DNA from: an uncultured Candidatus Saccharibacteria bacterium
GTDB taxonomy: Bacteria > Patescibacteriota > Minisyncoccia > Phycocordibacterales > UBA918
Assembly: GCA_964626635.1 (NCBI GenBank)
Contig: CAZVFY010000001.1
Coordinates: 112,498-176,497, forward strand
DNA length: 64,000 bases
Direction of reading: 5' to 3'
The position numbers and the translations under genes were made by a program. Each line of letters begins with the position of its first letter. Positions within the stretch are counted from its first letter, which is position 1. The notes beneath the pieces are model-generated. The model did not search any database and had not been told where the DNA came from. It worked only from the letters and a program-made list of their open reading frames with translations. Positions 2,721 through 32,327 of the stretch are shown here, piece after piece.

Positions 2721-2723
2721 ACG

Positions 2724-4241: not shown

Positions 4242-4287
4242 ATGTATTATGCTAGCACGCGCCACCCTTCCGAACGGCGCTAGTCCA

Positions 4288-7200
4288 CTAATCCGGGACC
4301 GCGGTAAAGGTATTGACGCCCGTGTGTGGGTTCGAGGCAGTACCAAATGGTACTTCGATACCCCAGAAGATTTGATCGGTGGTCGGCGGGTCAGTTGCCA
4401 CTGGTTTAGGCAGATCAACCTCGACATTAGTCCCAAGCACCGATAGCGTCGCACACCCCAGACACGCAGCATAATTGAACGAGCTGGTCGCAAATCGTTG
4501 CTGCCCGGCCGGGATGACTGAGGCAATACCGTCACTCATGTCTGTTCCAGCGACCTGCACGTCAATGTTCTCGTTTCCAACATTGATCAGATCGACATTG
4601 GGGTTATTGGTGCCCGTATCCTGAGCCACGTCGACCGTACCGTAGGCGATAGCATTCTGTACGTCGAGCGCGCGTAGTGTCAGCAGTTCGACCCCCATTG
4701 AAGAGCGCAGATCTGCCGCGCCGCTCTGGTCACTGACTTCGATGAATGCAAACCACTCTTCCCCGGCATCAAAGTCAGTTGGGTCGGCATGGTACACCAT
4801 CGGTATTGTACACTGCAAACTACATGAATTACCCGTACACGCGGTAAAGCTACACGTACTGGTTGCAATGTAACAATCATTATCATTCGGCGTACAGTTA
4901 CTGTTGGCGGTGGTTTTGTAGAACGTAGTCGTAGCGCTCGCCAGATCAGCCACCCCGTTAAAGTCAGTGACCGTAGTCGACGCAGTGATCAGGGTAGTAG
5001 TACCAGCCGTCAACTGGATATCTAGTCCGTCATTGAGCGAGACTTCTGAGATCACCGGATCAAACGCGAGCGTTAGTTCAGGCAGGTTATTGTACGCGTC
5101 CAGTTCGTCCCCGCTGTCTGTCACGCGGAAACAATACGCGTCATTCGCAGCGCTGGTTGTCAGGGTGAGCGCGTATTCCAGTTCGGTGTAACGATTTTGT
5201 CCCAAATTGAGATTGTTAGAGCGATTGCCTGTATTCGACACAATTTCTCCGGCCGAGAAGTCACCCGCATCAGTGACCAAATGATCAGAGGTAGCGTCCC
5301 CATTAGATACCTCAGTAGAATTAGCCATACAAATAGCACTGGTGCCACAAGAAGCGACCGTTGGCACCGGTGCGTAATTAGTCGCTGGAACGGCTTCACA
5401 GGTGGCAGCAGTGAGTTTCGGTGCAAACTCGATCTCGAAATTCTGGTTCTCGATTGGCAATCCGGTGTTTTCGATCCCCACTCGGAGTCGCGCCACCGAC
5501 CCAAAGCTAAAGCCGCCAGTTGGAGTATTTTGATCGCCGGCCCAGGTAGCGCCACCGTCTAGTTGCTCGTCACCTAGATATACCGTTGGGAGCGCGCCGA
5601 TACGCGGGTACGCTACGTACGAATCCCACCCGCCGTGTTGGAACCAGTAGGTAAAGCCGATGCCGCCGCTACTGTACGTTGTATCTATTGCTGATAGATC
5701 TGCTATTAATGTGCCATTAATGTCATACATCGCTACCTGCATCGCCCCATCGACACGCCAATCAATTACAAACTCATACCAACCTGTAGTAAAGATGGCC
5801 GAAGATGATTCTAAGATTGTACCGCTCGCCTCAGTATCGACCACGTCACGGACGAGTGATATGCGATCAACACCTGGCTGCTGTACACAAAGACCATAAT
5901 TATTATTATCTTGCATTTGTGATTGTACCGCAAATAACGTACAGACTTCATCGTTTGCTCCAGCCGAAGTATCAATGTACTGCATGTAGCGAATCGTCTG
6001 CCCTGCGCTGACGGTCACACCGTCCCGCGCAATACCGTCAGTCGCCCGCTGCTGTTCATTACCGTCCGTATCCAATCCCAGCGCGCCTCCAAACGCGAAG
6101 CTGTTACCAATATTGAACAAACTAATATCACCATCGTACGGCGTTAAGCCACTGCTCTCAAAATCTTCGACCGTATCAAACACCTGATCCGCATCGCTAC
6201 TGCTGTTGGCAGCGAGATTACCGTAGTACAAGTAAAATTCAGTCACGTCATCATTAAGGGCTGGCGCCTGGAACCAGACCGTTGCGTCCACCCCACTTTG
6301 GAAGCGTTCAATCCAGTGTGGGGTGATACTGACTCCGTCTGCTAACGTCACGCGAACATCATCAAAGTCAGTCTGCATATCAGCATCGTAAATCACTGGC
6401 AACTTAACCGCAGTAGTCGCGACGGCAGTCGGATTATTGTTGACAACACGGATACGCTGCCGCTGCCCCCAATCATCGTCGTACCAGGTACCAGTAGGGG
6501 CACCCTCACCCCCATCGTCGTTACGCCAGCGGTAGTTAGATTGCTCGATCAAGAGACATTCACTATCATCCCAGCGCACAGAACTACAAAGATCAGTACC
6601 GTCAATATCAAATGCTTCACCCCACAGATCGCCGATCGCGCCGGTAAAATTCCATGAATTTGTGGTAGTTGCGCTGAGATTGACGTTTACTCCGCCACTG
6701 AATCCACCCGCGTTAAACGCGGTGTCAGTCACGACCAAGTTCGGGTTAGAGTTAATCGTGATCGGTGTCAGGGTGATCAATGACGCACCATCACTCGTCT
6801 GCGTGAACGATCCGTTACTGAGTGATGTCACTCCGACTCCTAACAGCAGCTGTAGTCCGTCGCTGTCGATGTTTGTGATGTCATAGAATTCGGCGTTGAG
6901 GGTACCGGCTTGGGCAATCAAGGCGTACTGCCCAGTCCCCTGATTTGTGATCGTGGTAGTCGCGCCAGTCACCCCGAGAATATTGAGTACGCCACCATCC
7001 AGTATCACACTACTACTGCTCGCGATGCGAACCGTCACCGGTCGGTCAGAGATGTTGGCGCCGTCAAAGTCAGTGGCCGCACTCCAATGCTCGGTCGTGG
7101 TCGCGATGGTGTAGGAACCATAGATATTGAGTGCGCCATCGCTTCCGGCATGATCTTGAGAATACAGAGATGATGAGAGTGGGACGCTTGTGGTTGCAGC

Positions 7201-10200
7201 ACTACTGTTCCAGAAGGAAATATTACTGTTTGCACCGATCTGCAATGTGCCATACGTTTCTGTCGCAGTTGTTTTGACGCCGACTTCGTATCTATTGGCG
7301 CCGTCGAGAACTAAAGTGGTATCGGTCCAGGTAGTGGCAGCGCCGCCGACCGTATTACTGAACACTCCGCCAACGTAAACGCTACTATCCGGCGCCACCG
7401 TAAAACCGCCTGCGGTTTGCAAACTGAAATTGTTGGTCGTGGTGGCAGACCCGACTAATGTCCACGCTCCCGAACCAGCAACTACGAGGTTATTGAAGTC
7501 ATTGTCATTTCCTGTGTCAATAAACAGGCCGCTCGTTGCACCATTGAGGAGAATCGTTCCGCCATTATTATTGAACGTACCGCCAGACACATCGAATGAC
7601 TGTCCCACTGCTAGCGTGCCTGAGCCAGAGGTAAATACACCATTAGTAAGGGTCAGGCTACCTAGCAGTGTCGCGTCCGAGTCGGTTAACGTATAATCAC
7701 CGCCCGCCGCGCTGATCTGCACAGTACCGGCATCATCACCGCCAAGGGTTAGCTCGTTCCCACCAGCAGTATCAGTCAACAAGAGCGTACCGCCATTGTG
7801 GGCAATCGTGCTGCTGGCAATAAAGTTACCCGCCACCTCGAGCGTACCACTTGGGAGAGTGACTAATCCGCTGCTGATAATAATGTCATCAGTGGTGGTG
7901 GAATTTGTATCAAGAAACGCCCAGCTCCCCGATCCTGTAAACTCCACGCGATTAGCTGCAGAACCTCCAAACTGTATGTGTTGATTGGCCTCAATACTAT
8001 CGAGCACAAGCGCTCCAGCATTTGCATTAAAGCTTCCACCAGTGTTGACAAATGATCCCGATACCGTTGTGGTAGCCGCTGGTAAAGTTAATGTCCCACG
8101 GTTAATTATCAGATCCTGATTGATGTCACCCTCGGAATCAATTATGGTCCAACTACCAAGCCCATCGAGTACGAGCGAATGGAAACCAGAGTCATTAGTA
8201 TCAATCGTCCGTCCAGTCGCGCTACTGGTGAACGTAGTGGTCGATGTTTCAGCATCGAAGGTTGCTGCACTGTCAGACAGCAAGCTGCCGCCGATACTGT
8301 ATGCGTGCGTTCCACCGTCGAACGTGGCGCCAGCAAATAGTTCGAGTGATCCGCTGTGGGTTGCGATGCTGCCGCCCGGCAGTATCACATCGCCACCCGG
8401 AGCAAAAATCTTGTCATTCCAAATAATTAGACCCGTATCAGCCGCCAGTGTCAGGGTGTCAACCGCACCCGTTGTTGCGGTAAACGGAATATCCGAGTCA
8501 TTGCTACTATCGTAGACACTCATGGCTTCAATAGTCATTGGATCACTGCTCTCGTGACGGACGATCACGTGTGATTCGTATAGGTCTAGATTGCCGATCA
8601 GTGAAATTGGGTCTTTGGTCACGGTTGCTGCCTCGGTTCCGGCATCATTGATATAGACGGTTAGCGTATCACTCGGCCCGAATCCAATCCCCGGGAACGT
8701 GTACTCACCAGTCGTAGCATTACACGTAGTAGACGCAAACGTCAGACCTTGGATGCTTAAGCGAATGTTCGGTGTACTACCATTACATACGTTTGACACG
8801 GTAGTGCGATCTGCTTCGTACACTCGCCCAGTCACATCAATAATTGCAGCTGAATCTTCCCACACGATCGAGCCTGGGTCCCCACCAGCATCTGGGTCGG
8901 CGTCGAACGCTTCTCCCACCAAGTTTCCGAAGGCATTCACGAATCGCCACGAACTGACCGGTGTCCCCGTTGCCTTAACATTGACTGCGGCCCCTCCAGA
9001 AGCATTTGAGAATCCATTACCGGTAAAGTTACGCGCCTGGTTCGCATTGATGACACTGGCGCCGACTGTGATTCCTGATGCGCCAATCGTCGGACTGACA
9101 AAATCCCCGTGTGACAGCTCAATGATAGTTGGAGTACCAGCCAGCACCAATCCGTCGCTCGTCACGTCGCGCACCACGTAATGGTGCAAGTCAACTGTCG
9201 TCGTACCACCCAGCGTGAGATCAAAGGTGCCAGTGCCACCCAGCACCCCAATAGTTGTGCTCGCGGTCGAAGTGCCCGCCGCTGTCAGCGCACCGCCGGT
9301 ATACAAGACTGATCCACCGTTTTCGACCAACACATTGGCAATACGCTCGGTCGCTAGCGATGCACCATCCCAGTCCCGGGCATAGCTCCAGTGATCGTTG
9401 AAACTATCACTCCGCAAATCACCATAAATATGCAAATCACCGATCACTTGATCATGATCCATTGAGTACAACGAGCTGCCGGGCTCGGTCGTAATGGCCG
9501 CGTAATCAGAATTCCAGAAGCGCGGCTGCGTCGAAGACGAGACGCGAACTGTCGCGTAGTCGTCTGCGTCCAGCTTGTCGTTCACTACATACGCGCCACC
9601 ACCGAACAAATGGAGGGTTGATCCGGTCCAGGTGGTTAGTGCATTATCAAGCTGATTCCTGAACTCACCGCCGACAGCTAGTTGCTCCGCACTGTTAACC
9701 GTCACACTACCGCTCAGTAGCCGAGTGTCGTTAGTGGACGTCGCTGATTCGCTAAAGACAAAGTCACCTGCCCCAGCAATATCCAGGTCATAAAAGGCTG
9801 AGTCACCAGCATTGATCGCCACGGTACCCGTCGCATTTAGTAATTCGACCAATCCACCGTTCGCGATAAACTGCCCGTCATTAGTCCAACCGCCAAAGAC
9901 GTTAATTGGAGTGACGGCACTGGCGACCAGCGTTCCATTGGTGCCGATTACCAGGTCTTGGTTGACACCAAGAGTTGGATTGTTGGTATCGAGTCGCAGT
10001 GTCGAAGAACCAGTCTGTCCAATCTGCAGATCACCGAGCACTTGCAAACCAGTCGCCGGCGCGGTCGCGAGTGTGGTGCTACCGACGCCAGCGTCGATCT
10101 GCAGGTCATAGTAGGCCGTTTGGGTTACGTTTGGTGTGACTCCGCTATAACGGATGGTAGCCGTGTCTTCAAGGAAGGTGCCTTGCTCATCAAATACAGT

Positions 10201-19200: not shown

Positions 19201-22200
19201 AACTAACCGGATTTCGTTGTACTCCCGAGTATCTAAATCGATCAAGTTAACTGGGCTGGTTGTAAAGCCAGTAGCATTACCCGTCAGTGACGCATCAGGC
19301 ACTAATTGCCAGGTACCATTATTGTTGTATTCGATCTGCACCGAGAACGAGCCAGTCGTCACTGTCGCATCCCAAGCTAATTCGCCCCACGCGTTGCCGA
19401 TCGTCGCATCGTCAAAATCGATGGCGGTGCTGGTGATGACGCCTGGACTACTGACCAAATCAGCGCCGCCGGTGGTGGTGGCGACACCAGTAAGCGCATT
19501 AGTAGCAAACTGACCACCAGTTGTCTGCAGCCATTCGCTGGTCGTCAATGTGGTGTCTGTAGTAAAGCTAAACGGCGCTGACCAATCACTGAATGCACCC
19601 GAACCATTTGGATCACTCGCGCGTACTCGCCACCAATAGGTGGTGCTGGAAGCGAGAATACTACTGCTGTCAAACCGTACAGTTGCACCCGAACTAAATG
19701 GGGCCTTATCTGCGGTTGCGCTTAAATTAGTAAATGATAGTGGACTGGTGAGCGAATTTGCCGACAACACGACTGAACTGAAAGTGCGGTTATCATCAAT
19801 CTCAAGTTCGTAGTGGATATCATCACCCGCAATGTCGTTGGCGACAAAGCTGAGCGACGGTGTTATTTGAGTAGTGTGTTCGTTGTCAAAGAATGACTGT
19901 AAGAGCGGCACGTTAGGTGGTCCGACCGTTTCTAATTCTGGGTATGAATCGTACGAGTCAAAAGTCTCTCCATTGGCGCGAATCATCCGGAAACAGTAGG
20001 TTTGGTTGACATCAATGTTATTAGTGAGCAGCACCCAATCCCATTCCATCACAGTACTTGGGCTAAACTCAACGGGATTGAAATTAGACAAGTTGCGCTC
20101 TTCGTAGGTGCCGGCGTCAGTTGAACTCGCTAGCAGCGTGCCTGGCAAAGTATTGCCGTCACTCACACTAGGATTATTAAACCCGGCAAACGCAGCGGTC
20201 GTACTCCCAACGCCACCCACCAGTTTCCAGTCGGTCGCGAGTCCACACTGACCGACAGTGGCAGGTGCGTACTGCAGTGCAAAGGCCTCGGTACCCGCCG
20301 TCGAAGTGGCGTTCCCGCCAGCCACGTTCATGCGCAGACGCAAAACATCGCCGGTGTTCACGGCTCCAGCGCCGGTTATTGAGTCGCCCTCGCTCACGAA
20401 TTCTGTCGAATTAATTGCCCAAGTAGTTGTTAGGTTCAGTGCAGCAGTATTCTGATACCAGCCGAAGGACAACTGCGTGTATTCAGGGCCATTCGCCTCT
20501 TGTTGCGCCAATGCACGGAAATTCGCGGCGCCGGCACCAAACTTACGCGCCTGACGTGGACCAAGGACGTTCTTTTCATCTTGATCAATCGACACGTCCT
20601 CCATAATCATATAGAACGGTCGATCGTTGGTCGCGCGTACTAATGTGCCTGCCGCAAAGTTTGCCCCATCACCGCTACCAGTGCCATTAGTGAAGTACGC
20701 TTTGCCGGGCGTGTTCGCCCCAGGACTACAGGTGCCGGTTTCGATAGTCACACCCAATGCCGTAGTGACTTCAAGTGACACGGCGCCGTACTCGGGTGCA
20801 CACACTACCGCGATGTAGGCGGTAGCGCCCGTGAGCGCGTATTGCGTGCTGAATTCGCTCGTTGGCCAGAACATTGTGGCTTCGTTACCGTCACTGTCGG
20901 CCTGCTGTGCAAAGCTAACGCCCGAACTAGCTCCCGTGATACGCACCGCTGACCCAGCTCCTTCGCTACCATTAGTACAGGTTTCACCATTTACTTCAAT
21001 ATCACCTTCAGTCAAACCAGAGTACGTACCAGTATTGCCGTCAGAACAATAGTACGTTGGATTGGCTGCGTCAGCCAATCCAATCCCCACTATATTGTCA
21101 GAGTCAACTCCATACAGATCATCGGTTGTGGGTTCAAGCAGCGTCAAACCATCACCCGGGTTGGTACTGCGGTGAGTGGCTAGAATAGGTACGTTTGATT
21201 CTATACGCATTCCCTCCCCATCTTGTACAGCAGAATCAGTCCCTTGGGGATTGGTGTTTGATACTGCCACCGCACCACTACTGAGTACGATGGTGTCGTC
21301 AGCCGTGGCGCTGTCCCCCAAGAAAAAGTCAACCGTCGCGGTGCCAAATGGCGCGTACACATATGTGCGATTTTCATTGCGCGCTGTTGGCAACACATAA
21401 CTGGTGGTGGCAAACGAAATTGGAACTAATACATCGCTACTATCGCCGCTATCTGTAATTACCGCCGCTGACACAGGCCCGAATGTACTGAGGGCTGAAG
21501 TGCCGTCGTACGTTGTAAAAGTAGCCTGCTCACCACGATTCAGGCTGACGGCTGTACCACCATCTAGCTGTACTTGGTTATTATCTACGAGACTTACGAC
21601 AGATACTGTACCAGCACCATTATTGTCTACGACATAATAAGACTCAGTGAGTGCGTCGTACGAAAAGGTGTCTAGCTCGTTACTTGCGCTCTCGGCGCCA
21701 CTATTACCATAGTACGCATAAATCAGCGATCCAGCGGCCTCTATGTTCGCTACTTGTACCCAAACTACCGCTTCGTCAGCTGTACTGTCCCAGGACTCAA
21801 TCCAGAAATCTAGTTCAGTGAACTCAGTAATTGCGAGAGTCTCTGCCGTTGAAGTGGAAAAGAATCGAGCATTATCAGCCATGTTTTCGTACTCGGTTTC
21901 CGCCCAACCAGCACTGCGCACCACCTCGGCTATACGCAGCTCATCGAGCTGTCCAATCAAACGCTGCTGATCGTCATACGCGCCATTAACCGCATCCTGC
22001 TCTTGTCCAATGACTAATCCACCGTTTGGAATATCAAAGGTATCAGTCATTGATTGTGTATCGGGATTTTCATTATCCCCTTGACCATCGACGTATAAAT
22101 TAACTTCGTCAGTCGCTGTGTTTCCCGTCACGACATAGTGCTGCCACTCGCCGGTATTGAACGTACCTACTGTATCATCGAGATTAAACAACTCGTTGCC

Positions 22201-25200
22201 CGTATTGTAGTATGCGCGGAAGACGTTTGGATCCGAGAAGAACATCGAGAACTCATTGTTATTATCAAAGTTCGCCCCACTCAAAATAGAGAGGTCAATT
22301 GATTGGGTTGTATTGTGCCACCAACTCACAGTGTGATTGCCGATTCCATCAATGATGTCGTTCGGTGGTTCGATCGCATCGTTGACACCGGCTCCAAACA
22401 CGGCGCCCCGCCCAAACAGACCACTCGTATCAGTGTCAGTATTATTATCGTCAGCGTGGTACCGGTTACTGGTGGAATCTAGGTACACATCTGGATTGTT
22501 GATCCCAGCCGCGAATTCTTCAAAGTGATATACTGCCCGAAAATTATTGGTCCAGACATTCTCACTTCCAAAAGTCGCATTACGTTCATACGCAATTGCA
22601 TCTTCATTATCATAATAGATGTAAAACTCGTTATTATCACCCCGCCCAAGATCAGCCTTGAAGTACAACTCGCCAGTATTATCAGTTGTATTGATATTGA
22701 CAAGTTCAATCGGCAGCTCGGTGACTCCGTCACCAGTCGTAATACGGATATCACTACCGTCGTTCGCGACACCGTTGAAGAAGTCATTACCAAGAATTGA
22801 CAAATCAAGGTAAACCGGGAAATCGGTTTGCGTACCGCTAACCCGACTGTCTGACGCAGTAAAGCGCTGACGACTTTCCCAACTAGTGCTGTACCAGTTG
22901 CGAGTAGCCGCGTTGTCTGGCGTCTGCACACCGCTGGTGACATAAAAGTCGCTGGCGCTGCTAAGGTTCGCGGACTCGGCGCGGACGAACGCGACCGACC
23001 GCGGCGCAATCCGAATACGCAATTCGTCTAGCTGCCCGTCCCAGTAGCGCCCTCCACCCTCACGACCGACATTAAAACCGTTACTATTAGTGTTAGATGG
23101 ATTGGCGGTGACTTGCACGGCCGTGTCTTGGAGAAAACCATTTTCGTACCAGTAATTTGTCCCACCCAATGTTGATGTACCAATTGTACCAAACCCCCGC
23201 CAAATACTAGTATCACGAGGTATAACCCGACTCTGTGCCGTATTATTATCAGTACCAAAGTAATGCAAGCCATTTGCAGCGTTGTACCACGGTCGAAATT
23301 CAATGTCATTAGGTTGATCACCGTTTCCCCACTGCCAAATCGCACCGTTATCAAAGCTCGACATAAAGTATGAACCACTGGTCGTCAGCGAGTCCCCGCC
23401 ATTAAATAGCCAGGTGGTCGACGCCGCCCGAGCGTTCGCACCTCGCAAGTCAAGCGCAGTGCCAAAGAACCCGCTGCTAGTGGCCATATCAGCGTTTTGA
23501 ATAACCAAGTCGTTACCGTTACCCGTCGCATCAGCCAGGAATGCACCCTGCGACACATCTGTATCATTGAAGTGATACACGGCGTCGTACTCGATCCACA
23601 CCGCCTGGGCGCCGAGCGGGTCAGTCGCCGCATATGGCATCAGCGTACTATTACCAAAGTACACGTAGAACGTCGTCGCGGCCGATGTCGGAATAATTGG
23701 AGCCAGGAAATGTAGTTCACCTGTTTCGGCTACAGTGTCGATAGACGCGAGGTCAATTGCTAGCTCAGTGCCGGCGCTCGTGTAAACCCGGATATCACCC
23801 CCATCGCTGCGTACGTTATTCCAGAAATCACTACCAAAGTCCGCCAGACTGACGCTAATTGGGAAATTGGCCAGATCAGCGTCGGCCGCGCCAGCCGGTA
23901 TCTCAAGCGGGATACGGTGCGTAAAGTCAAAGTCAAGCCAGTTATTGATGGCGGTGGCCTCGTTGCTAAAGTTACCAGCCATAGTTTCTTGTACGAACCG
24001 CAAGTCATCTCCGTCGGCGTCGACGTTCGTCCAGAAATCGTTAATCGCAGAATCGAGAGTGAGGCGGACCTGGAACTCTGTCTGGTCAGTACCAGTTGGG
24101 TTATCAACTTGTAGCGGCATTCGGTACTGCCAGTCTGATGACCAGAACGGGTCAAGGAGCCCGTACTCGCGATTACCAATGGCTTCCACCCAGTACTCGC
24201 CAGTACTAAACGGCGGGAAGCTAATATCCATCTTGAAATAGCGGGTTTCGCCCGGTGCAATACTGAACTGGTCTGGTGTGTACACCCGTCCTTCGAAATT
24301 GTCGGGTACGTCTTTGCGAGCCGGGCGCAACCCAAAGAACGCAGCTGTCCGCGCGAGCACCCCCTGCTCGGTACCCATCCCAGCGTTAGTAGTGACCGGA
24401 TCCCAACCACGGGCGTACTGCGTGACGGTGTGGTCTTGAACTTTTTGGGTGACGATACAAGCGGTTCCCTCACCCTCGATCACTTCACAAGTTCGCGCCA
24501 GATTAGTGCCCGGGCATGAATAAGTAGTTTCCGTGTCCGTTTCATTAACTGTAGTAGTGATGGTGCCGACGGCAGTATTCGCTGCTGCGGTAGTCATCGA
24601 CAACGCCAATTCGGTGGTAGTAGTTGGGCTGAGCTGACTACTTGTCGCACGTTCAGTAGTCAGGCTGTTAAGTGAATCAACTGGCTCGTCCACTGCCCAG
24701 CCGGCTTCACAGTGATACACGTACGGCCGATATTCTGGAATGACCGCCTGTCGGGGTTTGTTGAGACTGAAGACTTCTAGATTAGTGACTTCACCCACAT
24801 TGTTGGGGAAATACGTTTGGACACTAAATTCGTCAGCATTGTCACTGGTATTCGTGACGCTAAAGTAGGTCGTGACTTGGGACAGCCCTTCGTACGTTTT
24901 TTGATCTGACTTGATGATGAGTGTTTCGTCGTCGTTGTTATCGGTAAACGTAAACTGTACTTGCTCGCCGTCTGGTAGTGTCAAGGTGTCACCAGAGAGA
25001 TTGCTGTCGATAAAACCAGTGTTCTCGATCAGCTGGTCAAATGGCGTTGGTTCGGTATTCTCTGGTGGAGTCAGTACAAATAATTCTAGCCATGCGCTCT
25101 CGACGAACAGTTCACGGACAGTTGCGTCATCATGATCAAATCGTAATTCGACCACTACGTCGCGCAGCATAGCTGGATCGGTAATATCTGGTAGCGCGTA

Positions 25201-26610
25201 CAGGTAGTACCCACCGTTGACACTGTTGGATACCTCATCATCAATGATGACCGAGCCGCCAGTACTCCATGATGCACCCTGATCGAGGGAGTAGTTGACC
25301 GTCAAGGACGGCACCTCGTCTTGGGCATTGTTGCGCAATGCTGCGAGTGATAATCGTAGTTGCGCACCAGACAGAGTTGACCCCTCATCGAGCGGGTAGC
25401 CAAAGTTTGACAGGCGCATGGTATACTGACCACAGTCATCGCAGGTTAAAGTCGTCTCGTCATTTACGTCTGCACTAAAGTCAGTGATTGATCCGGCTGC
25501 CTCGCTTTCAGTGTCCGTATTGTCGACATTGCCAGATCTGGCTGCAGACGTGGTGGCAGTAGTGCCCGCATCATCAGCAGTGGTAGTGCCTGCAGCCGTA
25601 GCTGGTTGCGCCGGTACATTCGGTAGCGAAGTGCTGGTAGTAGCACTAGCAATGGCATTAGGATTGCCAGCCTCAACCGCATCTGGAGCCACTGGCTCTG
25701 TGACGGCGCCCGTCACTGTACTGGTGGCATCTGTTGCCGCTGCAATGTCCACAAGTTCTGGTGAGTCTAAGGCTGCAGTGTCAGCACTCTGCGTCGCCTG
25801 AGGTGCGTCAGCCACATCTATTTCAACAGCATCCGGGACAATCATAGCTTCAGCGTCGGTGCTCACCGCTGTCGTTGTCGCATCAAGCAGCAATCGACCG
25901 AGTGATGGTAAGAACACTGAAATGGTGCTAGTGCCAGCGTCAGGAGCAGTGTCTGTCGTAGCGTTTATCTCGATTGAATCGGTTGAATTATCAATACTCT
26001 CCTCTTCAATAGGAGTGGCAGGCGTGAGCGCGTCATTTGAGCCCGTTTGAGCGTTGTCAGACGGAACAGCATCGGCAACGGTGTCCGAATTGGTAGGCTC
26101 AGTATCCGCTGCTGCTGCTGATGCGTCGTTCGTCTCAACAGCAGACGCGACGTCAGACGTACTCGTGCTCGTACTAACAGCACTTTCAGTTTGACCGGAC
26201 GCAGTGGTAGTTCCGTTTTCTGGCAGGTCTACGAGCTCTGATGATCCCTGATTTGTTATTGACTCAGTACCCTCACCAGACTCTTGTGGCGGCTGGCCAG
26301 CTTGATCGAGAACATCGTTTGGGCCTGCATTGCCATCTACAGCTGGTTCATAATCTGGATCTAGCGTGGCTGAGTTGATGGTATTGAAATCTTGCAATAA
26401 TCCATACTCGTCAACGTTTTGGAACGTAACCGTTTTTGCATTTAGAAAACCTTCTGAGACAACCGCGGCAGGAAACACGTGTACGGTTTTTACAGTGTAT
26501 GCGCTCTGCATCAAATTTGCATACGACGAAAACGCTCCTCCCAATATGAGAGCAGCCAGCAACGCGTAGACAACATACTTTCTGGTACGTTTTGCGTTGT
26601 TCCGAATCAT
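4288..26610 (-). CDS. giant modular cell-surface protein (7,440 aa): signal anchor, acidic low-complexity stalk, DUF2341-like/LamG-like modules, FN3 domains, beta-helix-like modules
   Basis: Single uninterrupted 22,323-nt ORF. The ATG is confirmed at 26608-26610, preceded by SD AGGTGAGGT. The N-terminal hydrophobic helix is YVVYALLAALILGGAFSSYA. G(Q/L)LDE(L/V)R(I/F) LamG-like motifs recur. FWNNVRSDGGDIRV-type DUF2341-like motifs occur six times. YWWR(V/T)RA FN3 motifs occur twice. Every opposite-strand ORF inside it is short and composition-driven. Confidence 0.85.
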   Translation of the reverse strand: MIRNNAKRTRKYVVYALLAALILGGAFSSYANLMQSAYTVKTVHVFPAAVVSEGFLNAKTVTFQNVDEYGLLQDFNTINSATLDPDYEPAVDGNAGPNDVLDQAGQPPQESGEGTESITNQGSSELVDLPENGTTTASGQTESAVSTSTSTSDVASAVETNDASAAAADTEPTNSDTVADAVPSDNAQTGSNDALTPATPIEEESIDNSTDSIEINATTDTAPDAGTSTISVFLPSLGRLLLDATTTAVSTDAEAMIVPDAVEIDVADAPQATQSADTAALDSPELVDIAAATDATSTVTGAVTEPVAPDAVEAGNPNAIASATTSTSLPNVPAQPATAAGTTTADDAGTTATTSAARSGNVDNTDTESEAAGSITDFSADVNDETTLTCDDCGQYTMRLSNFGYPLDEGSTLSGAQLRLSLAALRNNAQDEVPSLTVNYSLDQGASWSTGGSVIIDDEVSNSVNGGYYLYALPDITDPAMLRDVVVELRFDHDDATVRELFVESAWLELFVLTPPENTEPTPFDQLIENTGFIDSNLSGDTLTLPDGEQVQFTFTDNNDDETLIIKSDQKTYEGLSQVTTYFSVTNTSDNADEFSVQTYFPNNVGEVTNLEVFSLNKPRQAVIPEYRPYVYHCEAGWAVDEPVDSLNSLTTERATSSQLSPTTTTELALSMTTAAANTAVGTITTTVNETDTETTYSCPGTNLARTCEVIEGEGTACIVTQKVQDHTVTQYARGWDPVTTNAGMGTEQGVLARTAAFFGLRPARKDVPDNFEGRVYTPDQFSIAPGETRYFKMDISFPPFSTGEYWVEAIGNREYGLLDPFWSSDWQYRMPLQVDNPTGTDQTEFQVRLTLDSAINDFWTNVDADGDDLRFVQETMAGNFSNEATAINNWLDFDFTHRIPLEIPAGAADADLANFPISVSLADFGSDFWNNVRSDGGDIRVYTSAGTELAIDLASIDTVAETGELHFLAPIIPTSAATTFYVYFGNSTLMPYAATDPLGAQAVWIEYDAVYHFNDTDVSQGAFLADATGNGNDLVIQNADMATSSGFFGTALDLRGANARAASTTWLFNGGDSLTTSGSYFMSSFDNGAIWQWGNGDQPNDIEFRPWYNAANGLHYFGTDNNTAQSRVIPRDTSIWRGFGTIGTSTLGGTNYWYENGFLQDTAVQVTANPSNTNSNGFNVGREGGGRYWDGQLDELRIRIAPRSVAFVRAESANLSSASDFYVTSGVQTPDNAATRNWYSTSWESRQRFTASDSRVSGTQTDFPVYLDLSILGNDFFNGVANDGSDIRITTGDGVTELPIELVNINTTDNTGELYFKADLGRGDNNEFYIYYDNEDAIAYERNATFGSENVWTNNFRAVYHFEEFAAGINNPDVYLDSTSNRYHADDNNTDTDTSGLFGRGAVFGAGVNDAIEPPNDIIDGIGNHTVSWWHNTTQSIDLSILSGANFDNNNEFSMFFSDPNVFRAYYNTGNELFNLDDTVGTFNTGEWQHYVVTGNTATDEVNLYVDGQGDNENPDTQSMTDTFDIPNGGLVIGQEQDAVNGAYDDQQRLIGQLDELRIAEVVRSAGWAETEYENMADNARFFSTSTAETLAITEFTELDFWIESWDSTADEAVVWVQVANIEAAGSLIYAYYGNSGAESASNELDTFSYDALTESYYVVDNNGAGTVSVVSLVDNNQVQLDGGTAVSLNRGEQATFTTYDGTSALSTFGPVSAAVITDSGDSSDVLVPISFATTSYVLPTARNENRTYVYAPFGTATVDFFLGDSATADDTIVLSSGAVAVSNTNPQGTDSAVQDGEGMRIESNVPILATHRSTNPGDGLTLLEPTTDDLYGVDSDNIVGIGLADAANPTYYCSDGNTGTYSGLTEGDIEVNGETCTNGSEGAGSAVRITGASSGVSFAQQADSDGNEATMFWPTSEFSTQYALTGATAYIAVVCAPEYGAVSLEVTTALGVTIETGTCSPGANTPGKAYFTNGTGSGDGANFAAGTLVRATNDRPFYMIMEDVSIDQDEKNVLGPRQARKFGAGAANFRALAQQEANGPEYTQLSFGWYQNTAALNLTTTWAINSTEFVSEGDSITGAGAVNTGDVLRLRMNVAGGNATSTAGTEAFALQYAPATVGQCGLATDWKLVGGVGSTTAAFAGFNNPSVSDGNTLPGTLLASSTDAGTYEERNLSNFNPVEFSPSTVMEWDWVLLTNNIDVNQTYCFRMIRANGETFDSYDSYPELETVGPPNVPLLQSFFDNEHTTQITPSLSFVANDIAGDDIHYELEIDDNRTFSSVVLSANSLTSPLSFTNLSATADKAPFSSGATVRFDSSSILASSTTYWWRVRASDPNGSGAFSDWSAPFSFTTDTTLTTSEWLQTTGGQFATNALTGVATTTGGADLVSSPGVITSTAIDFDDATIGNAWGELAWDATVTTGSFSVQIEYNNNGTWQLVPDASLTGNATGFTTSPVNLIDLDTREYNEIRLVANLSGSSVTLNNWQVRWGQRVEVPIQGDPFDNQKTADTLPTFDFVSTDPQGDDLEYEISFSTDFDFAGATTTYNSGVSTQFVNESNGSDLSPFISSERVTFDTPSGTPFANGVTYWWRTRAKDPAGGNAWSPWSEPDSFTIDTATTESTWFQTTQDQFSQGFFNGTVATTSGAVSLTNEIGEYGTVTLINNAWETITTSRTYDNMVVVASPEYNVTGQGDGRTPRIRNKTATGFEIKVDDHDGFSGTTVVDYLVLEAGEWELDDGAGGITLLAGTESLASTDLIRQPYDNGTGLTVPISTSFGTNPLAFATIVTVNDSTWVSAHLDAGNRSNEWTGGSIRLSLAKSMSDLPHSSGEDVDFVLMDQGSGTNNGTRFDTGRAFNDVEDSFSNGGHNFNLSGFTTMPGFTLLQQNSEGGGDGSFALKDLSGTQSNTNLFASVIEVGSRADAHGGDETVSLLAFESDTGILRRQDSGGLSGTFAGEDIIFSDGAGPKFANFAWNASTPASSVVRIQLQYRVSEGVYALVPDSQIPGNATGFTTSPIDLSGVDINTYDTIRALATLECVGSSCPTLDDWQLEWSEGVNMSGSLQEYDRTTNVTTGTVRAAVNGVPVSGVGVVSNGTWTLPNVTAFNGQIVTVWVDGADEQDEAVTSFVYDGLGDITGVALYEQHVSFVADEQGTITNQLLGLYDNTDDEDILFAVDGLNNLAVCGSGTCTDANLYVGPGQRYVPATSTAVSVSTHDFINDGTIELDNNSFTLSGSYDNNATSSTDTSTITFTAASTAETITSTEIPLDFHTLNISTGATATITVDVALDLSGDLSVNSGVFDRGESDIAVAGSVLTGATGNWQGTGTTTFNGTGSHTWTDNSPSTQNIGNVTIDGANLTVTAVTDVAAYDVVIGNNDTLVGGTGNTISVGGDWINNGSFNAGTSIVEIVEDDRVYPPIIPGSSDWYSDEDFGRRVPVVIDADEIDSTLTNFPIYLDLSTLGAAFWTDVASDGRDIRITSGDGQTELPHDLVEFDGADDTGELHFLADSVSATTDTSFYVYFANAAATAYAPTAQFGSQAVWAQYEAVYHFNDDVSATGNVVADATSNARDLVVTDNALATTSGQLGVGLNLESLNGYLNNPDFDWTAGDALVTSGWYLMDNADGGAYYQFGTGGNPNTINLRPWSGGGTGGGDGDFDFGDADGFNINPRNTTSWNQFFFVGTTVSGSSNRYYQNAILRDVANQTVNSPSNNDGFEVGRLGGGTTYFDALIDELRIATTTRNTAWIEAEYTNQNTPSIFYSAGVAESFQPDVVVDEATHNIAGGGSAFYTLRLNDASTTPVFTEPSLVVADDFIVATGTVALPTGTLTVGGSFTNNASFMHNNGTVLFNGAGTETITLGGTPFTNILNDVTFAGSGAWSVTDANATTSGQFAIQNGAVTMPTGTLAIGDTMNVTGGSFAHNDGSVRFYSDESINIITGGSAFNDVTFGAGGSFDWFDAAWTRRQQLTISASNLNATLTSFPVYVDLSDLGADFWSNVASDGADVRVTNSDNVQMPVELVSIDTDAETGELHFRADTLLATTDTVFYLYHNNGAASAPAPSSMYGRNNVWSNGYEAVFHLEETGDGTAGEFIDSTGNGYDGQGGAGAAVDVPTRTNGLLGSAQDFENSDNGDFIDLNTAMITGLEGANTKSVSAWSNVESWSDAGGLWNLGGSQTLQDYTVRVNDTNQWRAQHWDGDNTFAARPFGEWQHVALDYDGSDVRTYVNTINEDTIGRSLNTQDVSGYGVLIGRWRTGNYFDGLLDEVRFSSVSRSADWYAAEYANQNSPSTFYTADSQSLSADSQVFRLNEVNTNALGDVTINGVQLVAPTNNFNIGGSALNTGGSYNANNATTTFNSTDTGEVVAFGAAPFYNLVFDGVGGGWTVATNTVENRAVLQTGASFTQQPNTTLTVAGVFENRFAAAATTWTDSTLVLTGGDYVVTDRLDSGDDYANVSVSEDSDVVIWNSTIATSTIADSSSIYMPDYGGTDGLLRIYGQYDRTSGTEHWSYATDFDGTDLTGGSERAAQVRVANGGVVRIASTSALSALGSATASSTVDALAGNYSTVLSGSTIDARYLEVTNTDVAGVQLRDGATLGTFTDIEFAIATGTALTIDAATIEADPSRELNHIAFSTVTGAPHNVTLDDIPAAFWIFKTGTGNRYGESFDNDDGDPGAIQWSDSSFNIAVSGTIFQADTVTPMSAPVCNGVTEVVTVVVDGITTYRAPCSPLDGSYTVTGISYTGEPKLATYLESTAPNNSFVQAEIMSEVTGIGVSQPDFTVTRPEAIDGSVLVAIISKDDDPAITPPAGWTQIAGAGTGADDDIYTGVWYRVVSDASAEPANYTFTTVDNNERYQYWIGALVNVDTTNPLDVSSGVTQLVDDQTPAVPSVTTTAAGGLVLSSWFVDNDAAVDYPTSPDFVTHTEYVPNADNNNFNVVSQRLAVAGATDPLEAVGVNGGRDPHVITFAMRAATGATASGTATAAAITKTPIGATGDTFETITLTGEASGAENVVAGGTLALTRPATQDGDVLIAIIGKEDDPEITPPAGWTAISTLADTTQNDIFTGAWYRIVTNAASEPAAYDFISNGVNTQEHSYWIGSYDNVDTDVVVDAPAAWVKRVDDSTPAAPSVTTVSGGAEIIAAWFVLPELSVDVPSLPWQIRVRNLQVGTTQRNLTVLNRQQAVVGSTGDVMISSIGGGDETHTIQIALRPERISVANAIRNMNLYQDHVVVRHEDSDPLTISDMNLFDNTDDSDVPFVIGTSPDSLTVLAGNGLAVFDGKTFTPGGPVTLSGAGSTIADGSFRIGQSATYLSTTTDGLAVGGSFYVDAGGVYSGASSTVTFGASNPVSISAVGSSTIAIHDVIFAGSGMYALQTPLIVDTDVAVNSGTLTGVSDLTVENGDLSGAGVVDMIDGTVTLGSDNTFGSATPWSFYNLTFGSGAVAGVTTPATGSVVTTINNQLRIASGHFLDAGSTSWNLTGSGTVFDEQGTFLEDTATIRYSGVTPNVTQTAYYDLQIDAGVGSTTLATAPATGLQVLGDLQIGQTGSSTLRLDTNNPTLGVNQDLVIGTNGTLVASAVTPINVFGGWTNDGQFIANGGLVELLNATGTVAINAGDSAFYDLDIAGAGDFVFSESATSTNDTRLLSGSVTVNSAEQLAVGGEFRNQLDNALTTWTGSTLHLFGGGAYVVNDKLDADDYATVRVSSSTQPRFWNSDYAAITTEPGSSLYSMDHDQVIGDLHIYGDLRSDSFNDHWSYARDWDGASLATERIANVLVENGGSVLYTGGALTAAGTSTASTTIGVLGGTGTFDLTLGGTTTVDLHHYVVRDVTSDGLVLAGTPTIIELSHGDFVSPTIGASGITVGASVINANQARNFTGNGFSNASGGAAVNVKATGTPVSSWRFVNAFGNLVGEAFDADPDAGGDPGSIVWEDSAAIIDVTGRVYEADRTTVSNVCNGSTPNIRLSIQGLTFASTTCNATTGEYTFPGIGFGPSDTLTVYINDAGTEAATVTKDPISLIGNLDLYESHVIVRHESSDPMTIEAMSVYDSSNDSDIPFTATTGAVDTLTLAADTGLIIWNDKIFAPGGDVILPGGSIATHSGSLELFAGATFDGGTHAYSIGGSLLSDSAATFDAETSTTTFTSSATGRTIDTNDSGFHSLVLDGLGSWTIIDSEGDINQDLIINRGTLTLPAATTTVSGSFVNTGGSFNANAGALVLDSIEANQHIQFGGSAANRVEFTGSGSWAFLDTNSTTTDDIIISSGLVTLPSGTLEVAGNFIASSTIAHNGGTLLLTDTAGGNELTLGGDDAGTVQISAAGGDYTLTDSDATLLGSLTLTNGVFTSGSGTLAVGQSFDVSGGTFNNNGGTILLNGATSGLFIDTGNDNDFNNLVVAGSGAWTLVGSATTTNNFSLQTAGGFTVAPDSSVYVGGVFSNTVGGAATTWTDTTLVLDGANRYEVGVKTTATETYGTLQIGANSNISFWNSSAATTSVPLSSSLYSQDHAGSDGALNIYGSYTIATTTEHWSAATDFDGANISDRPVTVRIASSSSVILDGGVLNILGVTGATTTITNQGTGQYALIAQAGTLNAEFYDITNIDSDGLQLLLGVGVTSLSNGSFTQTSDGASLITLTPITINSNPNLVVTDTAFNAGGFSGGVNVNLSATTTNSWNFTGAIGDLWGEAFDIDGTDLCSSVRWDDSECLLIEQSNYRWRNDDGGEGAPTGTWYDDDWGQRQRIRVVNNNPTAVATTAVKLPVIYDADMQTDFDDVRVTLADGVSITPHWIERFQSGVDATVWFQAPALNDDVTEFYLYYGNLAANSSSDADQVFDTVEDFESSGLTPYDGDISLFNIGNSFAFGGALGLDTDGNEQQRATDGIARDGVTVSAGQTIRYMQYIDTSAGANDEVCTLFAVQSQMQDNNNYGLCVQQPGVDRISLVRDVVDTEASGTILESSSAIFTTGWYEFVIDWRVDGAMQVAMYDINGTLIADLSAIDTTYSSGGIGFTYWFQHGGWDSYVAYPRIGALPTVYLGDEQLDGGATWAGDQNTPTGGFSFGSVARLRVGIENTGLPIENQNFEIEFAPKLTAATCEAVPATNYAPVPTVASCGTSAICMANSTEVSNGDATSDHLVTDAGDFSAGEIVSNTGNRSNNLNLGQNRYTELEYALTLTTSAANDAYCFRVTDSGDELDAYNNLPELTLAFDPVISEVSLNDGLDIQLTAGTTTLITASTTVTDFNGVADLASATTTFYKTTANSNCTPNDNDCYIATSTCSFTACTGNSCSLQCTIPMVYHADPTDFDAGEEWFAFIEVSDQSGAADLRSSMGVELLTLRALDVQNAIAYGTVDVAQDTGTNNPNVDLINVGNENIDVQVAGTDMSDGIASVIPAGQQRFATSSFNYAACLGCATLSVLGTNVEVDLPKPVATDPPTTDQIFWGIEVPFGTASNPHTGVNTFTAVPD
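10990..12340 (-). repeat. tandem pair of ~200-aa homologous domains inside the giant ORF (approximate coordinates)
   Basis: Protein segments DGSVLVAIISKDDDPAITPPAGWTQI...VWYRVV...EPANYTF and DGDVLIAIIGKEDDPEITPPAGWTAI...AWYRIV...EPAAYDF. The PPAGWT codons were located at ~12215 and ~11505, about 710 nt apart. Confidence 0.6.
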
Positions 26611-26651: not shown

Positions 26652-26688
26652 GTATACCGCGCAATCCCCTCAGGATTCCGCGGTATAC
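26652..26688. promoter_or_regulatory. long palindrome in the giant-gene upstream region; candidate operator overlapping a putative -10 (TATACT)
   Basis: GTATACCGCG c AATCC cctca GGATT c CGCGGTATAC: perfect 10-bp outer arms (26652-61 / 26679-88) plus a 5-bp inner stem. It lies 42-78 nt upstream of the ATG at 26610. The minus-strand TATACT (plus 26651-26656) overlaps the left arm. No U-tract follows in either orientation. Confidence 0.4.
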
Positions 26689-32196: not shown

Positions 32197-32244
32197 ATTG
32201 CACTAGTGTAGCAGCCGCAGAGGATTAAATATTTCTGTATACAC

Positions 32245-32278: not shown

Positions 32279-32327
32279 GATGCTCTCAGTGACTAATAGA
32301 TTCAGCCAGTGTAGCGGGTGCGAGCAA

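Follow-up and report, generated by a model that had tools for sequence, protein, structure and literature searches.

The window, a stretch of DNA of 64,000 nucleotides, contains a gene of exceptional length on its minus strand. It encodes a single protein of 7,440 amino acids. In a genome of ~1 Mb, a size assumed from a relative with a 0.99-Mb chromosome (CP060229.1), the gene would take up ~2% of the DNA. The protein is already known as a database entry, but the system to which it belongs has scarcely been studied. It bears on how partners are recognised and held by Paceibacteria, one of the most abundant groups of uncultured bacteria.

Integrity of the giant gene

The gene and the elements near its start are as follows.

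4288..26610 (-): giant gene, 7,440 codons and a stop codon, ATG start, without internal stop codons
26619..26627 (-): Shine-Dalgarno sequence AGGTGAGGT, 8 nt 5' of the ATG, read directly
26652..26688 (no strand): GC-rich hairpin with 16-nt arms, between the cohesin gene and the giant gene

A preliminary description had reported one uninterrupted minus-strand ORF with an ATG and a strong Shine-Dalgarno sequence. This was borne out (ORF 26610..4288, 7,440 aa), and the start codon is backed by the homologues P0055 and P0054 and by full-length relatives with the same N-terminus. The hairpin may serve to terminate the gene upstream or act as an element of the 5'-UTR; in L086 a similar hairpin lies in the same position, 5' of the giant gene.

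The source of the sequence is of the metagenome type, and some relatives (L001, L014 and others) are interrupted by many frameshifts. One could therefore suspect a chimeric assembly, a collapse of repeats or a pseudogene in decay that mimics a single ORF. We regard the probability of such an artefact as practically negligible. A run of 7,440 stop-free codons at 52% GC is not explicable by chance. Neither tandem repeats nor direct DNA repeats of at least 30 nt above ~82% identity were found in the gene, so there is nothing that could collapse in assembly; the internal repeats of the protein have a mere 25-47% identity. The same DNA, identical over 36.6 kb including the whole gene (22,323 nt), is present in two other assemblies (L088 and L089: Logan SRR7428105 and JGI 3300040789). 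P0214 is a protein identical to the giant, and a 2-aa variant is present in a further metagenome. The UBA3466 orthologue is collinear with aa 3052-7440 almost without gaps (53% identity), and three more orthologues are collinear from ~aa 3170-3210; one of the collinear orthologues comes from a complete chromosome. In addition, 27 full-length relatives of 5.3-7.7 kaa exist. Repeat collapse and chimeric joining, raised as concerns when the gene was first noticed, are thus excluded by the lack of long DNA repeats, the identical assemblies and the collinear orthologues. We conclude that the gene is genuine and under selection.

Module organization of the protein

The modules of the protein, from the N- to the C-terminus, are listed below.

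26512..26610 (-), aa 1-33: basic N-terminus and sole hydrophobic segment (aa 12-32); A-F-S-S-Y-A, then N
26356..26505 (-), aa 36-85: motif after the signal, conserved in the family, YTVKTVHVFP...GF.N...FQN.DE..LLQDFN.INSA
25444..26355 (-), aa 86-389: acidic low-complexity linker (A 18%, T 16%, D 11%, S 11%), its length differing among relatives
24136..25443 (-), aa 390-825: conserved Cys-containing region with 13 homologues; no Pfam, NCBIfam or PDB match
21664..24135 (-), aa 826-1649: DUF2341 N-half, two complete DUF2341-LamG cassettes, DUF2341 C-half
20389..21663 (-), aa 1650-2074: region with no Pfam, NCBIfam or PDB match
19909..20388 (-), aa 2075-2234: Ig-like beta-sandwich, paralogue of aa 7025-7187, fold assigned via the model of the paralogue
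18766..19911 (-), aa 2234-2615: FN3-like unit, ~120-aa unit, FN3-like unit; WSxWS-like motifs
17458..18765 (-), aa 2616-3051: variable cassette (2650-2943), then the ~120-aa unit again (2944-3054)
16339..17457 (-), aa 3052-3424: scaffold repeat 1, i.e. 'car' (~85 aa), 'neck' (~165 aa) and short solenoid repeats
15328..16338 (-), aa 3425-3761: DUF2341-LamG cassette 3, LamG part 42-46% identical to orthologues
14755..15327 (-), aa 3762-3952: short solenoid repeats
13741..14754 (-), aa 3953-4290: DUF2341-LamG cassette 4 (Laminin_G_3, 54.4 bits)
12565..13740 (-), aa 4291-4682: ~395-aa beta-helix module A (EHWSYATDFDG), fold inferred from module C
11041..12309 (-), aa 4768-5190: two 'PPAGWT' jelly-roll domains
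10018..10989 (-), aa 5208-5531: 'neck' 2 and short solenoid repeats
8818..10017 (-), aa 5532-5931: beta-helix module B (DHWSYARDWDG)
7717..8817 (-), aa 5932-6298: 'car' 3, 'neck' 3 and short solenoid repeats
6535..7716 (-), aa 6299-6692: beta-helix module C (EHWSAATDFDG), where the family-wide C-terminal core begins
6178..6474 (-), aa 6713-6811: C-terminal DUF2341 (Pfam, 49 bits), the sole DUF2341 common to all family members
5560..6174 (-), aa 6813-7017: ConA-like lectin domain (CBM66 / legume-lectin-like)
5050..5538 (-), aa 7025-7187: Ig-like beta-sandwich, modelled, among the best-conserved modules
4291..5043 (-), aa 7190-7440: Cys-rich C-terminal segment with invariant cysteines; low-confidence model for the last ~120 aa

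At least six DUF2341-like units, each followed by a LamG domain with an LDE[LV]R motif, had been proposed. Five units are complete (starting at aa 895, 1243, 3425, 3953 and 6713), while the rest are an N-terminal half (aa 826-891) and a C-terminal half (aa 1589-1649). Only three matches pass the gathering threshold of Pfam DUF2341 (PF10102, 23.4 bits), with 47.9 bits at aa 1598-1650, 49.0 bits at aa 6748-6820 and 23.5 bits at aa 936-1016; two other units score 18.5 and 17.0 bits. Region 826-1649 is an apparent insertion of domains into a domain, and the arrangement of an N-half with a full unit is found in P0053 as well. A search of the DUF2341 profile against the PDB gave no match. Four units are followed by LamG copies with the motif (aa 1004-1230, 1352-1591, 3535-3761 and 4062-4290), whereas the last one precedes a different, ConA/CBM66-like lectin domain, which was assigned by fold only. 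An HMM built within the protein detects the four LamG copies as homologous; against Pfam Laminin_G_3 (PF13385, gathering threshold 27.6 bits) two of the units pass at 53.6 and 54.4 bits and a third has 18.1 bits. Pentraxin/LamG matches are also the only ones obtained in a PDB sequence search with the whole protein.

The two proposed FN3 domains do not match Pfam fn3 (PF00041) at E<=0.1, and only weak Ig_Rha78A_N and Pur_ac_phosph_N matches were obtained, but a profile built from both units finds, in the PDB, FN3 domains of a cytokine receptor, the leptin receptor (E=4.5e-5, 32 residues). They may be called FN3-like by resemblance, not by Pfam membership. Three ~395-aa modules correspond to the suggested beta-helices, although the signature EHWSYATDFDG occurs exactly once and in two variants. 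Module C, the modelled copy, is predicted to adopt the proposed right-handed beta-helix fold. Both modelled parts of the protein are all-beta. The nearest folds to the PPAGWT jelly-roll are phage receptor-binding heads and TNF/C1q. NCBIfam gave no meaningful match in any of the 19 segments of the protein. Since aa 390-825, 1650-2074, 2616-3051 and the last ~120 aa have no assigned fold, an enzymatic or toxin module could hide in about a third of the protein.

Export and anchoring

Residues 1-33, matched by the N-termini of P0055, P0054 and full-length relatives, would be either a Sec signal peptide or a signal anchor. A signal anchor followed by an acidic stalk had been described. The single hydrophobic segment and the A/T/D/S-rich linker agree with this, but the anchor may instead be a cleaved signal peptide, as the residues Y-A directly before Q/N are conserved in close relatives. 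If it is cleaved, the retention of the protein on the cell is left without an explanation. No further transmembrane segment was found in the protein, and no recognised wall-anchoring device: LPXTG, cohesin, dockerin, SLH and LysM have no match in it. The motif search gave only NPHTG, 14 residues before the end and without a hydrophobic tail. Cohesin and dockerin modules are limited to the neighbouring genes.

Signs of other export routes were also sought. The RTX motif GGXGXD is absent from the protein by motif search, and the neighbouring ABC system is of the MacB/FtsX type, with no MFP detected. The TPS (haemagglutination activity) domain has no Pfam match in aa 1-830. The N-terminus MIRNNAKRTRKYVVYALLAALILGGAF has no prepilin (class III) signal and no G/A-F-T-L-x-E motif. 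The protein is acidic in composition, with 0.5% K and 36 Cys; the cysteines are paired, and a cluster of them lies at the C-terminus, where a Cys-rich segment had been noticed before. A secreted modular surface protein of a small-genome organism, as first envisaged, agrees with this single gene, its all-beta modules and the 0.99-Mb chromosome among its Paceibacteria relatives.

Family of the giant protein

Homologues were sought with three shorter pieces of the protein; the protein database returned pieces of at most 2,015 aa, and the representative library was searched with a single sequence. Relatives are present in at least 163 species genomes of Patescibacteria (Paceibacteria). They come from MAGs, including the chromosome CP060229.1. 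The domain combination had been called unrecognised and giant genes of this sort rare; within this setting neither statement was supported. NCBI, JGI and Logan each have an identical entry, named "hypothetical protein", PMC11809585 presents giants with DUF2341 from Patescibacteria, and adhesin-like proteins of OD1 have been described (PMC4508563). With the protein and a family of similar giants already in public databases, it is uncharacterised and not a new kind. The maintenance of an intact ORF of 5-8 kaa across at least 163 species means that it must matter to the biology of Paceibacteria.

The 27 full-length representatives have 5,310-7,696 aa and bear the core at the C-terminus. With the 1,151-aa core as a query, more than 30 proteins match at 40-64% identity over ~100% of its length. 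The order within the core is beta-helix, DUF2341, CBM66-like lectin, Ig-like and Cys-rich segment. The scaffold of the family comprises the N-terminal signal and conserved motif (VHVFP...GW.N...QN.DE.AL.QDFN.INSA in its family form), three repeats each closing with a ~395-aa right-handed beta-helix, and the core; the giant has the motif and the three beta-helix modules. Three beta-helix modules were found in 26 of the 27 full-length relatives, and three 'car' and three 'neck' units in most. Other units vary in number: DUF2341 from one to six, LamG from zero to five and PPAGWT from zero to two, where the LamG and PPAGWT counts come from HMMs built from the giant's own copies and may thus miss divergent copies. 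One additional DUF2341-LamG cassette is present in L005, L007 and L012.

Identity to orthologues is lowest in the LamG and PPAGWT domains (32-57%), with the protein-wide minimum in the LamG part of cassette 4 (32-40%), and reaches 50-69% in the scaffold and the C-terminus. Scaffold repeat 1 is 64-78% identical to the UBA3466 orthologue, and relatives have other sequence in place of aa 2650-2943. Judged by these identities and counts, the DUF2341-LamG cassettes are a variable accessory part and not the conserved core, and together with the PPAGWT domain they are the fastest-evolving parts of the protein. Relaxed constraint, and not adaptive specificity, may be the reason why the LamG cassettes are less conserved.

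Shorter family members (1,335, 997, 1,282, 908, 3,213, 3,747 and 4,202 aa) were considered as true short forms and rejected, as they have no signal peptides and the upstream DNA still matches the giant in every case tested. This upstream match is collinear through many frameshifts in L001 and L014; L024 and L043 have N gaps.

Conserved locus

The neighbours of the giant gene in the window are as follows.

28813..30681 (-): Big_6 and dockerin protein, 622 aa, conserved neighbour
28246..28755 (-): Hsp20, 169 aa, conserved neighbour
26726..28258 (-): cohesin-domain protein, 510 aa, upstream; it also adjoins the giant in L086 and L088/L089
2724..4241 (-): secreted 505-aa protein with FN3 / Pur_ac_phosph_N-type domains, downstream
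1398..2720 (-): ABC ATPase, 440 aa, with a MacB/LolD/FtsE-like NBD and a ~200-aa extension
173..1417 (-): MacB_PCD and FtsX permease, 414 aa, of the MacB/LolCE/FtsX superfamily, syntenic in 70 loci

The locus is conserved on either side of the giant gene in dozens of genomes. Its order is dockerin protein, Hsp20, cohesin protein, giant gene, FN3 protein, ABC ATPase, permease and further secreted proteins. The FN3 protein, whose true start is the ATG at 4241 and not the GTG at 4535, follows the giant on its 3' side in 79 of 84 related loci. The ATPase is syntenic in 75 loci with 46-87% identity (70-87% in closer relatives). The permease matches Pfam PF12704 and PF02687, and the ATPase PF00005. 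In NCBIfam the permease comes closest to lolCE, MacB and FtsX, while the ATPase matches DarD best and also FtsE, LolD and MacB, all below the equivalog cut-offs. Three further downstream genes and the ATPase extension have no significant Pfam match. Pilin, PilB/C/M/N/O and Tad genes were not found in the conserved locus.

Possible functions

We consider it probable (roughly 0.6) that the protein represents, in Paceibacteria (Patescibacteria/CPR), a conserved giant fibre of the cell surface that binds glycans and serves for attachment to a partner. The lectin-type, beta-helix, Ig/FN3-like and jelly-roll folds fit this role, as does the faster divergence of the lectin cassettes. The protein would be exported through Sec, with its N-terminus (the anchor or the membrane-proximal motif) remaining at the cell. 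The ~300-aa acidic linker would cross the wall, and the rigid scaffold of beta-helices and beta-sandwiches would reach out by ~100-250 nm, which is our own estimate from typical domain sizes. The four LamG domains, the ConA-like domain, the beta-helices and the jelly-rolls could then bind glycans of the partner or host envelope in a multivalent manner, and the rapidly evolving LamG and PPAGWT cassettes would set the specificity. The ABC system and the FN3 protein, which are conserved along with the giant, would probably help to install, hold or act on the fibre; synteny is the evidence for a coupling between the ABC system and the giant.

A point against the attachment fibre is that beta-helix modules are also common in polysaccharide lyases and depolymerases. 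The protein might be a scaffold that harvests or depolymerises glycans. Its beta-helices would then be active polysaccharide lyases or hydrolases, like those of phage tailspikes and pectate lyases, its lectins would act as CBMs, and the cohesin and dockerin proteins would build a cellulosome-like complex to degrade the host capsule or wall or an environmental polysaccharide, for feeding or entry. The conserved cohesin and dockerin neighbours speak for it, and giant proteins of predatory bacteria have been tied to cell-wall degradation (bioRxiv 10.1101/2023.11.21.568195). Yet we regard this function as unlikely, since no lyase, hydrolase or CAZyme family of Pfam or NCBIfam matches anywhere in the giant, which itself lacks cohesin and dockerin modules; the fold matches of the beta-helix (pectate-lyase-like enzymes and others) have 8-13% sequence identity, and beta-helices can be purely structural or adhesive, as in tapirin. 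A structural part of the envelope, such as an S-layer-like coat, a sheath or a division/shape scaffold that an FtsEX/Lol-like ABC system installs or remodels, with partner binding secondary, would account for the single match per species genome in a fixed locus in 163 species genomes, for the highly conserved ABC and FtsX neighbours (70-87% identity in closer relatives), for the invariant scaffold architecture and for the neighbouring Hsp20. We find it improbable: known S-layer proteins are unlike a single-chain fibre of 5-7.7 kaa with variable lectin cassettes, searches of the giant gave neither an SLH nor another wall-binding module, and varying cassette numbers with fast-evolving lectin modules suit outward-facing recognition better. 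Several MAGs also have frameshifted copies, which may be sequencing errors but, if real, argue against essentiality.

By analogy with archaeal DUF2341 proteins and PilY1, the giant could also be a tip adhesin on a type IV pilus-like filament. DUF2341 proteins occur in archaeal T4P loci (PMC4858521; PMC10133366), and the PPAGWT domain is also found on proteins with prepilin-type N-termini. This is very improbable, because neither the N-terminus of the giant nor the gene content of its locus is of the pilus type and its constant partners are the ABC system and the FN3, cohesin and dockerin proteins. A more far-reaching proposal is that the whole cluster is a dedicated, undescribed surface machine of ultra-small monoderm bacteria, in which the ABC system acts on a lectin-studded fibre; we hold it to be speculative and quite unlikely. 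The machine would consist of the giant fibre together with the cohesin, dockerin and FN3 proteins, the ABC system of the MacB/Lol/FtsX type and another three secreted proteins, and the mechanotransmitting ABC system would spend ATP to extract, install, tension or remodel a fibre of 5-8 kaa. If true, this would be an energised device for attachment or for breaching the host envelope, with swappable DUF2341-LamG and jelly-roll specificity cassettes. Testable handles are offered by the scaffold that stays constant, by the lectin cassettes that vary and by the close linkage to a MacB-type ABC system.

Comparison with known systems

RTX adhesins such as LapA, MpIBP and SiiE and Gram-positive adhesins of the Ebh/SraP type are surface fibres of several thousand residues, rich in beta-sandwiches and with lectin-like ligand-binding modules. 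Unlike them, the giant has no RTX repeats, T1SS signal or partners, LPXTG or long arrays of near-identical repeats; its modules are heterogeneous and diverged (25-47% identity). It shares a right-handed parallel beta-helix with phage tailspikes/depolymerases, pectate lyases, AlgG and tapirins, at 8-13% identity and with no shared Pfam family.

The neighbouring ABC genes share MacB_PCD and FtsX domains and a LolD/FtsE/MacB-like NBD with the MacB/LolCDE/FtsEX systems ("type VII", mechanotransmission), whose members work on extracytoplasmic substrates. They differ in scoring far below the equivalog cut-offs and in an ATPase that is ~200 aa longer. To our knowledge, no characterised member of this superfamily is coupled to a giant surface protein.

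Like the giant, the archaeal DUF2341 proteins of T4P loci (arCOG03508; M. maripaludis MMJJ_08210) match PF10102, are large and secreted, and are proposed adhesins. They have been suggested as tip adhesins of the pili (PMC4858521), and one of them is required for transformation in M. maripaludis (PMC10133366). Their genes belong to pilus operons that also encode pilins and assembly ATPases, whereas the giant is accompanied by a MacB-type ABC system, has no prepilin signal and is several times larger.

Further close counterparts are giant proteins of CPR bacteria, which have been interpreted as attachment proteins (PMC8080830; PMC11809585; PMC4508563); large beta-rich repeat proteins of OD1 were termed adhesin-like in 2015 (PMC4508563). 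The giants annotated with DUF2341 or FhaB in PMC11809585 belong to the same phylum and size class as ours, contain DUF2341 and were read as adhesion or host-interaction proteins. Among them is OGG71089, a Kaiserbacteria protein of 6,999 aa, which we liken to the giant by description and not by alignment. They probably come from the same lineage (GTDB Paceibacteria/UBA9973/UBA918/OLB19), and the OLB19 genome has a homologue (L033). These giants were counted and displayed in that work, while the family-wide scaffold, the C-terminal core, the variability of the cassettes and the ABC/FN3/cohesin locus are described here.

Start and integrity of the giant gene

The giant gene occupies 26610..4288 on the minus strand and comprises 7,440 codons, with an ATG start and no internal stop in the window. 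The motif AGGTGAGGT lies 8 nt 5' of this ATG. The start codon is backed by conservation: a homologous database protein, P0055, has the same N-terminus (MYKVGIKRIKIRTFYVATTALIIGGAFSTYAQL...), and the giant shares with its full-length relatives the motif located after the hydrophobic stretch. The uninterrupted frame, the ATG and the Shine-Dalgarno sequence reported in the preliminary description are upheld.

That description also called for exclusion of repeat collapse and chimeric assembly. The gene is free of tandem repeats and of direct DNA repeats of at least 30 nt above ~82% identity, and the internal repeats of the protein share only 25-47% identity. A Logan assembly (SRR7428105) and a 210-kb JGI contig (3300040789), the contigs L088 and L089, match the window base for base over 36.6 kb, a stretch that contains the entire gene (22,323 nt), and a further contig encodes a variant differing by 2 aa. 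Therefore the worry about collapse or chimerism can be set aside, and we regard an assembly artefact as having a negligible probability.

The spacer separating the cohesin gene from the giant gene contains a GC-rich hairpin (window 26652-26688; 16-nt arms, 94% complementary, 5-nt loop) with no T-run; a related contig has a similar hairpin in the same spacer (L086, 2901-2929). The hairpin in the window may be either a 5'-UTR element or a variant terminator.

Module anatomy

The modules were delineated using Pfam, HMMs iterated inside the protein, two AlphaFold models and fold searches.

Modules of the giant protein (gene on the minus strand; residue numbers, N- to C-terminus)
aa 1-33: basic and hydrophobic signal, the only hydrophobic segment of the protein
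aa 36-85: family-conserved motif
aa 86-389: acidic A/T/D/S-rich linker
aa 390-825: conserved Cys-containing region without a database match
aa 826-1649 (window 21664-24135): N-terminal half of a DUF2341, two complete DUF2341-LamG cassettes, C-terminal half of a DUF2341
aa 1650-2074: region without a module assignment
aa 2075-2615: Ig-like domain and two FN3-like units
aa 2616-3051: variable cassette (about aa 2650-2943), followed by copy 2 of a ~120-aa unit
aa 3052-6692: scaffold repeats 1-3, each built from a 'car' unit (~85 aa), a 'neck' unit (~165 aa), a set of short solenoid repeats and a module of ~395 aa; two further DUF2341-LamG cassettes lie inside the first repeat, and two 'PPAGWT' jelly-roll domains between the first and the second
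aa 6713-7440: DUF2341, ConA-like lectin domain, Ig-like domain and Cys-rich tail

The giant is a secretory-type, cysteine-paired modular protein, all-beta in the two modelled parts. The module list drawn up from the sequence alone was broadly right, although several counts and types had to be corrected. In place of at least six DUF2341 units, in-protein HMMs find five full units and two halves. Four LamG domains with the LDE[LV]R motif do follow DUF2341 units as described; the fifth lectin domain belongs to a different type. The two proposed FN3 domains have no match to Pfam fn3, but a profile of the pair resembles the leptin receptor FN3 domains (E=4.5e-5). The three beta-helix modules of ~400 aa are supported by fold, though not by Pfam.

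The halves of the split DUF2341 end with ...DGDDLRFVQE and begin with TELDFWIESWD...YAYYGN, respectively, and flank two complete cassettes. When the halves are spliced together, the Pfam match widens to profile positions 1-66 and scores 56.6 bits, against 52.3 for the C-terminal half alone. An N-terminal half combined with a full unit is also seen in the homologue P0053. These data fit, but do not prove, a domain-in-domain insertion, which aa 826-1649 may represent.

Relatives and module variability

The C-terminal core (the last 1,151 aa) aligns over its whole length with more than 30 database proteins at 40-64% identity, and when each GTDB species was represented by one genome, relatives were encoded in at least 163 genomes. 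The 80 loci retrieved are named as Patescibacteria (Nomura-, Kaiser-, Adler- and Lloydbacteria, Paceibacterota or a generic "Saccharibacteria"), alongside a few odd bin labels. Where the full 10 kb of upstream flank was available, at about 55 loci, the ORF extends past the fetched DNA, so the giant exceeds 4,400 aa in those genomes. Among 1.84 billion representative proteins there are 288 matches at E<=1e-30, 27 of which are full-length (5,310-7,696 aa) with the core at the C-terminus. The orthologue from UBA3466 is collinear with aa 3052-7440, almost gapless, at 53% identity.

We rejected apparent short family members as true short forms; they are interrupted or truncated copies. In the related loci L001 (1-6900) and L014 (1-12100), at least a dozen frameshifts interrupt the gene, while the DNA upstream remains collinear with the window protein in other frames. 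Such frameshifts in metagenome contigs could reflect error-prone long-read assembly or genuine decay.

Modules were counted in the 27 full-length relatives with HMMs built from the giant's own copies, by which divergent copies may be missed. Three beta-helix modules are present in 26 of the 27. Nearly constant are also the 'car' (three), 'neck' (three, occasionally two or four), Ig-like (1-2) and FN3-like (2-5) units, whereas DUF2341 (1-6), LamG (0-5) and PPAGWT (0-2) vary. With 5, 4 and 2 of these, respectively, the window protein is at the cassette-rich end of the range; three close orthologues have an extra DUF2341-LamG cassette after the first beta-helix module (A). Compared with four orthologues, LamG (32-46%) and PPAGWT (38-57%) are the least conserved modules, and the Ig-like and Cys-rich C-terminal modules (61-69%) the most conserved. 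The giant combines a conserved scaffold with variable lectin-type cassettes.

The PPAGWT jelly-roll has no Pfam family and may merit one. It recurs, sometimes in tandem, on the C-terminal side of proteins with a prepilin-type N-terminus from other uncultured bacteria (P0066, P0069).

The conserved locus

Downstream (3') of the giant gene, related loci encode an FN3-domain protein (79 of 84), an ABC ATPase (75) and a MacB_PCD/FtsX permease (70), in this order wherever enough downstream DNA is available. The mechanical ORF of the FN3 protein (window 2724-4535), read from GTG 4535, would share 248 nt with the giant gene. Its true start is placed at ATG 4241 (505 aa) by the signal peptide, homologue lengths and gene calls in L088, and this removes the overlap. 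The ATPase has 440 aa, about twice the usual NBD length, and keeps this length in most related loci; its C-terminal extension of ~200 aa (window 1398-2120) has no Pfam match. The ABC genes are 70-87% identical in closer relatives, above the giant's own conservation. The pair belongs to the MacB/LolCDE/FtsEX superfamily and falls below every equivalog cut-off. The permease is followed by three or four more proteins that have hardly any family annotation or none; one of them contains a dockerin. Upstream, the order of a dockerin/Big_6 protein, Hsp20 and a cohesin protein is conserved. The giant gene keeps a constant genomic setting that includes a type VII-like ABC system.

On the upstream side of the giant gene, secreted or unannotated proteins appear to be abundant. 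This region includes ORFs of 973 and 377 aa without a Pfam match (window 37406-40327 and 32328-33461) and a CAP (cysteine-rich secretory protein) domain protein (35538-36770). A Y-family DNA polymerase (IMS) is encoded at 33789-35063, within 31117-35063. In the identical contigs L088 (1105-2822) and L089 a Peptidase_S24 (LexA/UmuD-like) gene adjoins it, so that this reduced genome has a UmuDC-like pair.

Proposed role

We favour, with a probability of roughly 0.6, a Sec-exported, N-terminally retained fibre that binds glycans of partner cells. The N-terminal end would keep the giant on the cell, the acidic linker would traverse the wall, and the fibre would be roughly 100-250 nm long by our own estimate from domain sizes. 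Envelope glycans would be bound multivalently, with the LamG and PPAGWT cassettes as putative specificity modules. The adhesin-fibre reading proposed initially is plausible and partly supported.

The giant itself has no LPXTG, RTX, TPS, prepilin, cohesin or dockerin features. Cohesin and dockerin proteins are its neighbours, and a depolymerase or a cellulosome-like feeding scaffold is a minor contender. The ABC system could install, hold or mechanically act on the fibre; that it energises the fibre as a machine seems unlikely. We consider a structural component of the envelope, to be set against the cassette variability, quite improbable, and a tip adhesin presented by a pilus highly improbable.

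Comparison with known systems

The observation of the giant gene is confirmed. Its domain combination had been described as unrecognised. This finds no support, since an identical protein (P0214, a cluster member, "hypothetical protein" in NCBI, JGI and Logan) and many relatives are already deposited in public databases, and earlier work noted the class. The papers searched contain no account of the scaffold, C-terminal core, cassette variability or MacB-type ABC/FN3/cohesin locus of this family. Among 2.1 million NCBI Patescibacteria proteins 149 exceed 4,000 aa, 82 of them with FhaB and/or DUF2341; a 6,999-aa Kaiserbacteria protein (GTDB genus OLB19) was displayed, and such giants were read as adhesion or host-interaction factors (PMC11809585). 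Large beta-rich repeat proteins of OD1 were called adhesin-like (PMC4508563), and the same was inferred for Vampirococcus (PMC8080830). DUF2341 also decorates ExbB/TolQ-like proteins, and DUF2341 proteins are carried by archaeal pilus loci, one of them being required for transformation.
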